Assembly (NCBI RefSeq): GCF_003334405.1
Contig: NZ_QOWM01000031.1
Reading direction: 5' to 3' (one strand)
Source: Escherichia coli
Lineage (GTDB): Bacteria; Pseudomonadota; Gammaproteobacteria; Enterobacterales; Enterobacteriaceae
DNA: 12,108 nt
In this document: positions 3,001 to 6,000 of the stretch, piece by piece
Position numbering within the stretch: the stretch's first letter is position 1
How the letters are laid out: each line of letters opens with the position of its first letter
Program-made: the position numbers

Positions 3001-6000
3001 AATCCTGTTTTTGACCGGATAACGGTCGTATTCGCACCGTTATAACTCACAGTCTGCATCCTTGCATCAAATCCAGAAGGTAACGGAGTCGCTGCTGAAT
3101 ACACAAGCCCAGGAAGCAATAAACATGTAGCAATAAATAATTTCTTCATCATTCCCCCCTGACTTCCCGATCTGTCTGGTAACTGGTTACAGTAAAACCG
3201 AGAGGATTAAGCTCACGACTTGAACTTTTAACCGACTTTTCTGGTTCAAAACGATATGTCACACGAGCCGTCCAGTATGAAACTGAAACCTGTCCGGTCG
3301 TGAAGTTTCTCGTCGTTTTTTTAAAGCGCACCGAGGCCAGTTTATCTGGCGCGGTTGCGTCAGAAATAATATTGGAGATGACCTCAACCGCAACGTAAGA
3401 ACCGTTATTATGATAAATTTTATCAGGAGCCATATCGCTGTTATAGATACGAAGATAATCGTCCTTTACTGTATTCGAGCTATATAGCTGTACAGTCTCA
3501 TAATCATGCTGAAGAGACGGATAATTATAACCTTCACGTAAAGTAATATACGTGTTTACAAAATACCGCCCAAGTGCTTCAGATTGCAGGATCTTTTCCT
3601 GTTTAACCTGAGTAATCAGTTCTGTACGGCCTGTTTTTTCGCCAACAGCCACAATAGCAAGCTCTTTTTCTTTTAATGGCACAAGAACACAAATTGCAGC
3701 CCCAAGACATAAGGACAGTAATGATGCTGCCACTGCAACACGCCATGCATTTTTCTTAGACCGTTCATTTTCTGCATAGAGTTGTCTTTCGAAGGATTTA
3801 GCTGTCTCAATCTTCTTTTCGATTTTTTCACTCATAACTGATTACCTGGCTGTGGTTAATGGGTTCCAGTTCGCCGGAAACATCAGAAGGAAGGGTATTC
3901 CTTGTAGTACATCCGGAAATCTGAAACAGGAAAAACAAAAGAATCACACATCGCATAAATTCACCTTATTAAGCGTTCACGAACACCTTTAAGAGATAAA
4001 GGCCAAGATGAAGAAAAAGAATCCCACCAATAAGAAGCAAAAAGCGAAGATCCATACCCTTTCTCCATTTCCCCGCAAGCCCTAAACCAAGTCTTATTCC
4101 TGCGAAGCAGGTAAACACTCCTAAAAGAAGGATTAGGACAAAATAAAGTATCATTACAAGATAATGAAGCATGTCACAACCAGCTCTGACTGATTCCACC
4201 TAAGACCTTAAATAAGGTAATTCCCGTGATTAAAATAATAAGCTGGGTTATTAGCTTTCTCTTCCTGCTCCATCCGGAGGTGATATGTTTATCAACAAAC
4301 GTCAGTATCCAGTTCAGGGACATCACATAAAAAAAACGTTTCATTATATTCATGCGGCATTCCTCGCTCGTGCTTTTTCCAGGGATGCAAGTCTTCTAGC
4401 CTTCATCCCCAAAGCACCTGTCGGAGCCAGCGCCTGATATCCCTTTTCACCCGCCCATTCAGCGGCTGTTCGCGCACCACGCCCCATCAGATTCCCTGCT
4501 TTCCCTGATAAAGAATTCATGCCCGTTCTTCCGGCCATCCCTAAGCCAAAACCTAAACCAGCGCGACCGCCAAGCATCAGAGACTTACCAGTAGCCATAC
4601 CAGCAGCACCCAGCCCCATCATGGCTGCGCCCTGAACAGCACCTTCAACACCTGCACCTGCTAACTGGACAGCAAAACTTTTAGCTATAAGAACCAATAA
4701 AGCTCCCAACAATCCGGCTAAAAATCCCATTGCACTTACGGTCATAACATTACTATTGGGTGTCGCATTAGATACTTGTTGCAATATATCCCCCTGAAAA
4801 TCCATAGCTATCCGAATTACTAAACTGGCAAATAACACAGTCAGGATGCTAGAAAATAGCGATTGCAACCAGTTATTAAACATAACTCTAATAAAACCAA
4901 ACATCAGACAGAAAATAAATATTGGCGCTGTTATAATAAGGAATTTCATCGTAATATCGGCAGTTAAAAAAACAACAGCACTAATTGTCATTAAAATAAG
5001 TGAGCCAGCCCAAACAAGCGTCATACCTAATGCGCCAGCCAAAGGAATGAAATCAGTGTCTTTTTGATATACCTTTTCCGCAAGATTTTGTGTTTTCTCC
5101 CATAAGTTATCTAAGGTTTGCCATGCGCTAACTCCGCCAGAAAGCCCATCTTTCATGCCTTGCAATGCATTGGTTGCCGCTGTCAAATATCCATCTGCAT
5201 TTGTTATAAACATGATTATGATCGCAAATTTTGATAAATCCCAAACTAAATCCTGCATCGGAGTCTGAGTTTTACTGGCGAGTATTTGATAGCCTTTCCA
5301 TAGTACATATAACGTGACAGATGCTGTCACTAATGACATTATATCTTGTGTGAATTGACTTTGATAAGTAGATCCAACCTTATCAATTGCTTCCATAACG
5401 GTTGTATTATATTTAACAAAGAATGACATACCTTTTCCTTCATTGAATCGTAGGTATTGGTGCGTTCATCTGTTGTTGCTTATATTCAGCCCTTTGTTGT
5501 TCTTTCAACATCTCCGTGTCAGCCTGATTTTTACTATTCCAGACATCATACTGCATTTTTATCGCCTGCATTTTTAACGACTGTGCCTGTAATGCGTTAG
5601 CCAAATCCTGGGATTCTTTCATATCCTTTGAAGCCTCAATTCGAGTACTTAAACTCTGAATCTGAGACATTGCACTTGATAACTGCTTATTTATCTCATT
5701 TCCCTGTTCAATACTGGCAGCCTTTGACACAATCCGTGCTTTACAGAGATTATCATTGCGTTCATAGCCTGTAGTGCACATATCGAAGGCTCCATACTTC
5801 CTGAACAGATTTTTTGCCTGACTGCTTAATGCACCTTCGGGATTACTGGTAAAATCAGAAATATAACTGTTCCCCTGCTTATAAATATTTGTCAGTTCTG
5901 ATTGCAGATTACTTAGTTCATTTGTGAATGCCGCAATATTCCTTATACCTGTTGCCGTTGCTAACTGGTCTTTATATGCCTGAATCTGACTCTGATAATG

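Follow-up and report, generated by a model that had tools for sequence, protein, structure and literature searches.

The 12,108-nucleotide stretch of Escherichia coli DNA analyzed here (contig NZ_QOWM01000031.1 of assembly GCF_003334405.1, hereafter the window) carries an IncX4 plasmid backbone, with a pilX/virB operon for a type IV secretion system (T4SS) on its minus strand. The analysis concerns two small open reading frames, ORF-A and ORF-B, that fill the slot between virB6 and virB7. The minus-strand genes run in the order TaxC, PixR-like regulator, EexN, a 58-amino-acid (aa) ORF, VirB1, VirB2, a VirB3-4 fusion, VirB5 and VirB6, followed by ORF-A, ORF-B, VirB7, VirB8, VirB9, VirB10 and VirB11; all features described below lie on this strand. 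The slot is bounded upstream by virB6 (pilX6; 4350..5429), which encodes a mosaic, hypervariable protein of 359 aa (Pfam TrbL/VirB6, 7.8e-46), and downstream by virB7 (pilX7; 3828..3956), which encodes a 42-aa lipoprotein with the lipobox ISGC. The 701-bp region around ORF-A and ORF-B finds counterparts of 90-100% identity in 442 plasmid records; nearly all are typed as conjugative, MOBP and MPF-T, and the subset examined in detail is typed IncX4.

ORF-A begins inside the end of virB6. The last codons of virB6 read ...AAT GCC GCA TGA, and the ATG of ORF-A at 4353 shares that stop as ATGA, while a GAGGAA Shine-Dalgarno-like motif (4354..4367) lies within the virB6 3' end, 6 nt before the ATG. 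The frame (4174..4353) encodes 59 aa with the sequence MNIMKRFFYVMSLNWILTFVDKHITSGWSRKRKLITQLIILITGITLFKVLGGISQSWL. Hydropathy analysis identifies one clear hydrophobic span at residues ~34-54 (Kyte-Doolittle values up to 2.25), the only part of the protein to reach transmembrane values. The N-terminal helix, with a 14-residue hydrophobic core, is less hydrophobic (~1.0 on the same scale), and a basic SRKRK patch occupies residues 29-33. The possibility that ORF-A is a split-off VirB6 C-terminus was ruled out, as VirB6 measures 359-369 aa with or without ORF-A.

ORF-B (3969..4172) encodes 67 aa and starts at 4172, 1 nt past the ORF-A stop, in the context TGAcATG; no convincing Shine-Dalgarno motif of its own was read upstream. 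It contains two strong hydrophobic spans (Kyte-Doolittle values up to 2.9) separated by a KWRKG loop at residues 35-39. Twelve nucleotides past ORF-B, virB7 begins with its own strong AAGGTGA Shine-Dalgarno sequence, and the mature part of VirB7 is conserved across all relatives. Since this separate 42-aa gene supplies the lipoprotein (3828-3956), ORF-A and ORF-B were ruled out as VirB7 itself. Every feature that the original prediction listed for ORF-A (59 aa, ATGA overlap, GAGGAA motif, one transmembrane span, SRKRK patch) and for ORF-B (67 aa, TGAcATG junction, two-transmembrane hairpin, KWRKG loop) agrees with the minus-strand sequence.

Comparison with a diverged allele indicates selection on the ORF-A protein. 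Against the L004 allele (metagenome contigs L004-L006, 77% amino-acid identity), the synonymous and nonsynonymous divergences, dS and dN, are 1.09 and 0.167, giving a dN/dS ratio of 0.15; shifted-frame controls for the same comparison return 0.66 and 3.9. At least 80% of ORF-A is covered in 439 of 443 matching plasmids by tblastn and at least 80% of ORF-B in 440 of 442, a coverage that measures sequence retention and is by itself no proof of an open frame in each record. On these sequence comparisons, ORF-A is a real gene under purifying selection. The signal for ORF-B comes from 24 loci representing 7 haplotypes within IncX4, which contain 9 synonymous and 8 nonsynonymous variable sites (omega, the corresponding rate ratio, ~0.27; binomial P = 0.008); third codon positions hold 9 of the 17 changes, and VirB8 in the same set has an omega of 0.09. 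Both length variants of ORF-B stay in frame, one losing 18 nt (6 aa of helix 1) and the other 12 nt (removing KWRK). ORF-B is thus probably a gene. Purifying selection, which the original prediction had proposed checking for both frames, is therefore visible in a dN/dS of 0.15 for ORF-A and in an omega of ~0.27 with in-frame indels for ORF-B.

ORF-A defines a small family whose members are recognized by a length of 55-61 aa, a start overlapping the virB6 stop and a C-terminal transmembrane helix. An alignment of six sequences from four lineages (IncX4, the pSECR25-like L004/L034 lineage, IncX7 and Arsenophonus) shows the 4-nt ATGA overlap in all four and a shared motif, S-x-N/D-W ... T-x-G-W-S-x-x-K-K ... 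Q, ahead of the transmembrane helix. The invariant residues S12, W15, T25, G27, W28, S29, K33, Q37, G44 and K49 group in the S-x-N/D-W of helix 1, in the turn T-x-G-W-S and on helix faces, where they may form an interaction-like surface. In IncX7, plasmid pJARS35 of Yersinia pestis carries a homologue of 44% identity in the same coupled position. Two Arsenophonus nasoniae plasmids and one further NCBI contig also carry a homologue (P0027, E = 2.4e-8, profile search), and in Arsenophonus the ORF-A stop additionally overlaps the virB7 start. The Arsenophonus system shares only 56% identity in VirB8 and 64% in VirB6 with the window, yet it retains ORF-A, and ORF-A is therefore old in this clade.

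The contents of the slot differ between related backbones, some of which lack ORF-A, ORF-B or both. IncX4 plasmids carry both frames. In the E. coli plasmid pSECR25-9519-3, ORF-A is followed by an intact 45-aa two-helix ORF that occupies the ORF-B position and overlaps the ORF-A stop (TAATG); contigs L004-L006 share this arrangement, but a TGA interrupts their 45-aa ORF at codon 4. The IncX7 and Arsenophonus plasmids have ORF-A only, and the view of the two frames as a pair is accordingly not supported. In the metagenome plasmids L025 and L028 the slot is empty, and alignment coordinates suggest that virB7 sits directly at the ATGA junction with virB6. In IncX1, X3 and X6 plasmids and a Leclercia plasmid, the 78-203 bp between virB6 and virB7/virB8 leave no room for either frame, and the Eex gene lies between virB5 and virB6.

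ORF-B was seen only in IncX4-type plasmids, and within the relatives sampled it is an add-on of the IncX4 lineage. ORF-B or its positional counterpart occurs only where ORF-A is present. The comparison of ORF-B with the 45-aa ORF of pSECR25-9519-3 is not significant (BLASTP E = 0.94), so their homology is a matter of position and architecture only; the hairpin with its basic loop is kept despite near-total sequence turnover. No copy of the 45-aa ORF was found by tblastn in PLSDB. An origin of ORF-B as a duplicate of ORF-A was ruled out, as BLASTP gave no alignment and hhalign a probability of 3%. Two records call for separate comment. A 3.4-kb contig binned in a 'Candidatus Epulonipiscium' (Bacillota) metagenome-assembled genome (L030, CAZCDP010000172.1) carries IncX4 virB7/virB8 and ORF-B, and almost certainly entered that bin as a contaminant derived from a plasmid of enterobacteria. 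Plasmid pJSMCR1_5 (L038, NZ_CP030157.1) was considered as a natural knockout of ORF-A and ORF-B and rejected, given that every T4SS gene there is fragmented; this breakup into short coding sequences resembles indel sequencing errors.

Across the plasmids compared, the presence of ORF-A is linked to the VirB6 allele and not to the backbone. pJARS35, which has ORF-A, and L025, which lacks it, are 98% identical in VirB8 and only 72% identical in VirB6. L028, which likewise lacks ORF-A, has a VirB6 sharing 90% identity with the L025 protein. Because ORF-A follows VirB6 alleles in this way, it travels with certain of them, and it has been lost or replaced together with VirB6 cassette swaps. Most IncX4 plasmids encode a VirB6 with ~82% amino-acid identity to the one in the window, between flanks of 98-100% identity. 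Sliding-window identity resolves sharply bounded divergent cassettes within 97-100% identical backbones. Between the window and pSECR25-9519-3, the cassette extends from the last ~50 virB5 codons through virB6, ORF-A and ORF-B and ends exactly at virB7; relative to mcr-1-type IncX4 plasmids, it comprises the virB5 tail and VirB6 residues 1-235 only. More generally, window positions ~3990-5600 (the virB5 3' end, virB6, ORF-A and ORF-B) behave as a hypervariable recombining cassette in IncX4/IncX7 backbones. The VirB5 tail and VirB6 belong to it in every case, and the VirB6 alleles combine alternative loop sequences as mosaics.

Database searches place neither protein in a described family. ORF-A and ORF-B have no match in Pfam, NCBIfam (E <= 1), PHROGs, PADLOC or PDB sequences. 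Word-indexed searching across 5.8 billion proteins yielded no relatives beyond those in IncX4 and IncX7. When 1.84 billion representatives were searched by profile, the hits were limited to ORF-A-type proteins, fragments of them and one unrelated, repetitive 423-aa protein (E = 6e-5); the Arsenophonus type was the one real relative gained. Neither protein has a lipobox; ORF-B contains a single cysteine (C22, mid-helix) and ORF-A none. The earlier observation that both lack a lipobox and a recognizable family thus stands for Pfam, NCBIfam, PHROGs and PADLOC. A non-coding explanation of the interval was ruled out, as Rfam gave no RNA family match of note, promoter-like sites showed no excess (2 against 1.3 +/- 1.5 in shuffled sequence), and no terminator or repeat signal rose above background.

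AlphaFold2 models ORF-A as a helix (residues 3-24), a T-S-G-W-S turn (25-29) and a second helix (30-58), and ORF-B as a helix (2-32), a loop (33-37) and a second helix (38-66), each with a pLDDT confidence score of 74. Both proteins are accordingly predicted to be helical membrane hairpins. Their basic clusters would, by the positive-inside rule, place the ORF-A turn and the ORF-B loop in the cytoplasm.

Published work on the IncX4 plasmid pHNSHP23 (Yi et al. 2022, mBio, PMC8725589) provides the functional data on this slot. A single transcript, 'cds9, pilX1-6, cds8, pilX7-11, taxB, trbM', arises from one PixR-dependent start, and Cappable-seq detected no internal transcription start. PixR induces this 15-kb operon up to 250-fold, and cds8 rose 13-fold on PixR overexpression. 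The 18 genes that a Tn5 screen identified as essential for transfer do not include cds8. Deletion of cds9 abolished transfer and complementation failed, a result that the authors attribute to polarity. The cds8 gene lies in the same pilX6-pilX7 slot of a near-identical IncX4 backbone and is almost certainly one of the two frames described here. Only one coding sequence is annotated in the slot of pHNSHP23, in contrast to the two ORFs found here, and the paper contains no analysis of the product, conservation or function of cds8. Nor does it describe a second ORF, homologues in IncX7 and Arsenophonus, or a link to the VirB6 allele. A literature search found no other paper on ORF-A or ORF-B. One slot coding sequence was already on record without study, and the present analysis describes a variant T4SS operon with extra microprotein genes.

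Given these data, ORF-A and ORF-B appear not to be required for transfer in standard laboratory matings. The original prediction had held that their proposed role would fall if the frames were lost from relatives or if their deletion had no effect on transfer. This is borne out in part: the single slot coding sequence of pHNSHP23 lies outside the set scored as essential in the transposon screen, and some related backbones lack ORF-A, ORF-B or both.

The reading we favor, with a probability of roughly 0.4 and hence tentatively, is that ORF-A and ORF-B are real, co-transcribed small proteins of the inner membrane, which serve the VirB6 platform as optional accessory partners. It builds on the gene structure, coupling geometry, purifying selection and co-inheritance with VirB6 alleles observed here, and takes co-transcription of the slot coding sequence and its induction by PixR from the pHNSHP23 report. 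In the proposed mechanism, ribosomes terminating on virB6 would restart at the overlapping ORF-A ATG, so that ORF-A would be made beside and in step with VirB6. Its C-terminal helix would anchor in the inner membrane, with the turn (TSGWS + RKRK) facing the cytoplasm under the positive-inside rule. ORF-A could then pack against its cognate VirB6 allele and tune how stable the channel and pilus-assembly platform is, how it assembles or how it is gated. Coupled in turn to ORF-A, the faster-evolving hairpin formed by the two helices of ORF-B may be a lineage-specific add-on to the same sub-complex. A bolder version, which we regard as doubtful, makes ORF-A a new T4SS component: a VirB6-specific microprotein, or 'VirB6 tail piece', produced by coupled translation and located in the inner-membrane platform of a subset of MPF-T systems with particular VirB6 alleles, to which ORF-B would add a second, rapidly evolving layer. 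If it were true, VirB6 cassette swaps between plasmids would require carrying ORF-A along. In a variant of the tail-piece idea, the pair would instead serve as an inner-membrane exclusion or self-protection layer besides EexN.

Several observations weigh against an accessory role at VirB6. ORF-A is absent with the L025/L028 VirB6 allele types and in the IncX1, X3 and X6 plasmids examined, which makes any role it has dispensable or replaceable. When the window is compared with mcr-1-type IncX4 plasmids, VirB6 residues 1-235 differ strongly and ORF-A and ORF-B hardly change, which means that any partnership does not involve this part of VirB6. The co-inheritance of ORF-A with VirB6 could also be mere linkage within a recombining cassette. 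The AlphaFold2 models derive from shallow alignments of 5-6 sequences, and the published Tn5 screen could miss a mild phenotype in a target of 180-200 nt.

On another reading, ORF-B would have little or no function of its own and represent a young, lineage-specific frame that arose in the virB6-virB7 spacer and is kept mainly as a short, harmless ribosome relay along the operon; for ORF-A the same idea is less likely. Such an origin would fit the confinement of ORF-B to IncX4, with none in IncX7 and Arsenophonus plasmids, a sole counterpart that is not significantly similar and is stopped at codon 4 in three metagenome contigs, natural variants lacking either the KWRK loop or 6 aa in helix 1, and the lack of its own Shine-Dalgarno. 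IncX4 plasmids are, moreover, closely related, and an intact frame among them proves little on its own. The significant synonymous excess (P = 0.008), the two in-frame indels and the hairpin with its basic loop kept through near-total sequence turnover in the 45-aa counterpart argue against it, as does the strong Shine-Dalgarno of virB7, which therefore needs no relay. For ORF-A, a dN/dS of 0.15 and conservation across a clade with VirB8 only 56% identical contradict a functionless reading. Altogether, we consider the young-frame explanation unlikely. The original prediction also suggested a holin- or toxin-like pair, which could serve, for instance, in post-segregational killing or lysis, and size and hydrophobicity do resemble type I toxins, above all in the very hydrophobic ORF-B hairpin. 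There is, however, no match to Hok/Gef or other toxin or holin families in Pfam, PHROGs or PADLOC, promoter- and terminator-like motifs are no commoner than in shuffled sequence, and Rfam yields no RNA. Both frames are sense genes in a 15-kb operon with a single transcription start and no internal Cappable-seq start, and the strong PixR induction of that operon comes without toxicity reported in the accessible part of the paper (PMC8725589). The toxin idea is consequently very improbable.

A further explanation gives ORF-A, with or without ORF-B, a role in inner-membrane entry exclusion or self-protection like that of F TraS and SXT Eex: ORF-A in a plasmid-carrying recipient would recognize the donor VirB6 and block DNA entry, forming a second layer beside EexN. 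A position just downstream of a VirB6-type gene has precedent, with traS following traG in F and eex following traG in SXT. TraS is, in addition, an inner-membrane protein that recognizes the donor VirB6-like TraG (EMBO J review, PMC12624023). The agreement between ORF-A presence and VirB6 allele, the hypervariable stretch from the VirB5 C-terminus through VirB6, and the non-essentiality for transfer expected of an exclusion gene all point the same way. Against this, EexN is already present, co-varies with the VirB5 tail and VirB6 cassette and mirrors the VirB5 tail, so exclusion specificity is already accounted for. ORF-A and ORF-B, by contrast, remain nearly unchanged where Eex, the VirB5 tail and VirB6 residues 1-235 switch between the window and mcr-1-type IncX4. 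Neither frame resembles any exclusion family, and the conserved ORF-A motif is predicted to be cytoplasmic. We judge an exclusion role quite improbable.

The location of the known exclusion gene also bears on how the slot was first interpreted. The EexN-family lipoprotein (10258-10491; NF033894, 69.8 bits against a cut-off of 33) is encoded upstream of virB1 and adjoins the relaxase and PixR genes, which agrees with its assignment to the relaxase operon in the original prediction and with the pHNSHP23 paper (PMC8725589). The idea that IncN/IncW-type systems place an exclusion gene at or near the virB6-virB7 slot does not apply to the relatives examined, where Eex in IncX1, X3, X6 and Leclercia lies between virB5 and virB6, its canonical position. 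Nor is it supported that ORF-A and ORF-B stand in for a displaced Eex, as in Arsenophonus an ORF-A homologue coexists with an EexN gene between virB5 and virB6. Neither ORF-A nor ORF-B matches NF033894 (Eex_IncN) or TIGR04359 (TrbK) at E <= 1.

Eex is itself a divergence island: its allele changes in concert with those of the VirB5 tail and VirB6, and ORF-A and ORF-B are almost constant. The last ~15 EexN residues mirror the cognate VirB5 C-terminal tail (5440-5600), and both switch allele together. In the window, VirB5 ends in ...AEYKQQQMNAPIPTIQ and Eex in ...ALYKNQQQDAPVPQIN; in mcr-1-type IncX4 and pSECR25-9519-3, the tails are ...EAFIKQQKEAEPLTFD for VirB5 and ...ALFIQSQKDAPVPTFD for Eex, and in L031 they are ...AEYNKRQLNAPIPQFN and ...AEYNKQQLNAPIPQFD. 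The comparison covered the window and loci L040/L002, L039/L034, L031, L012 and L010. A similar resemblance occurs in Leclercia pLEC-2975 and in IncX3 and is not evident in IncX1, IncX6 and Arsenophonus paNv_CAN12 plasmids. The likeness suggests exclusion by mimicry of the VirB5 tail. No paper on this mirroring surfaced in a full-text literature search, and the resemblance may deserve more attention than ORF-A and ORF-B.

Other parts of the window also diverge from related plasmids. The relaxase gene taxC (10839-12068) contains an island in its 5' part (11640-12068, minus strand), the N-terminal end of the relaxase, with 64-89% identity in 100-nt bins to both comparison plasmids, against 99-100% elsewhere. 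The PixR-like regulator (10496-10762), called at 88 aa, represents an allele that diverges from the 97-aa PixR found in mcr-1-type IncX4 (L040, 2950-3243); nucleotide identity drops to ~45-63% in this interval, with flanks at 99-100%. This allele fits the PixR-1/PixR-2 variants mentioned in Yi et al. 2022 (PMC8725589). The 58-aa ORF before virB1 (9897-10073) has no family match and, by position, appears to be the 'cds9' of pHNSHP23.

Annotation of the slot is sparse. The 515-bp virB6-virB8 interval is empty in the RefSeq annotation of the E. coli records listed, so ORF-A and ORF-B are largely invisible in comparative work. Together with virB7, they remain uncalled by RefSeq/PGAP in the examined IncX4 records (for example NZ_LR025103.1 and NZ_CP070012.1), which means that the essential virB7 (pilX7) is missing from those records. 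In a few records ORF-A is a 'hypothetical protein', sometimes shortened to 49 aa by a start at Met11, and one GenBank record calls all three small genes.

These findings matter in that mcr-1 colistin resistance has IncX4 plasmids among its main vehicles, and the T4SS they encode is regarded as a standard VirB1-11 system. Binding of ORF-A to VirB6, if it occurs, would give structural models of minimal T4SSs an additional subunit to place and could account for the recombination of VirB6 cassettes in blocks. If the exclusion or self-protection reading were true instead, it would bear on efforts to combat resistance plasmids with exclusion genes. Only a modest pay-off is likely. The sole functional data, taken from the pHNSHP23 paper, point to a non-essential role in transfer.

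Among known systems, the F-plasmid TraS and SXT/R391 Eex proteins offer a positional parallel, being much larger polytopic proteins encoded by genes adjoining traG. Both reside in the inner membrane and recognize the donor VirB6-like TraG (PMC12624023). Neither is needed for transfer. ORF-A resembles them in its predicted inner-membrane location beside a VirB6/TraG-type gene, a likeness of position and architecture only. It differs, as does ORF-B, in having no sequence similarity to them (Pfam, NCBIfam) and in keeping its allele when Eex, the VirB5 tail and VirB6 switch. EexN and TrbK (NF033894, TIGR04359) are likewise small proteins of the envelope whose genes lie in MPF-T T4SS operons or next to them; they have a lipobox and a hydrophilic periplasmic domain, unlike ORF-A and ORF-B, which have neither a lipobox nor a match to these profiles. 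In the X-T4SS of Xanthomonadales, DUF4189 protection factors are encoded directly downstream of virB6 and are often unannotated (bioRxiv 10.64898/2026.05.09.723464). These factors, of ~164 aa, are not membrane microproteins: they are secreted envelope proteins, rich in disulfides, with VirB5 as their binding partner, and show no similarity to ORF-A or ORF-B.

For a possible mechanism, KdpF, AcrZ and CydX offer a comparison. These single- or two-helix proteins of fewer than 70 aa each bind a membrane machine whose operon also contains their own gene. Subunits of this type are often missed by annotation and often dispensable in laboratory conditions. Though unrelated to ORF-A and ORF-B in sequence, they serve as a working analogy, by which the two small proteins would likewise bind the T4SS in whose operon they are encoded.

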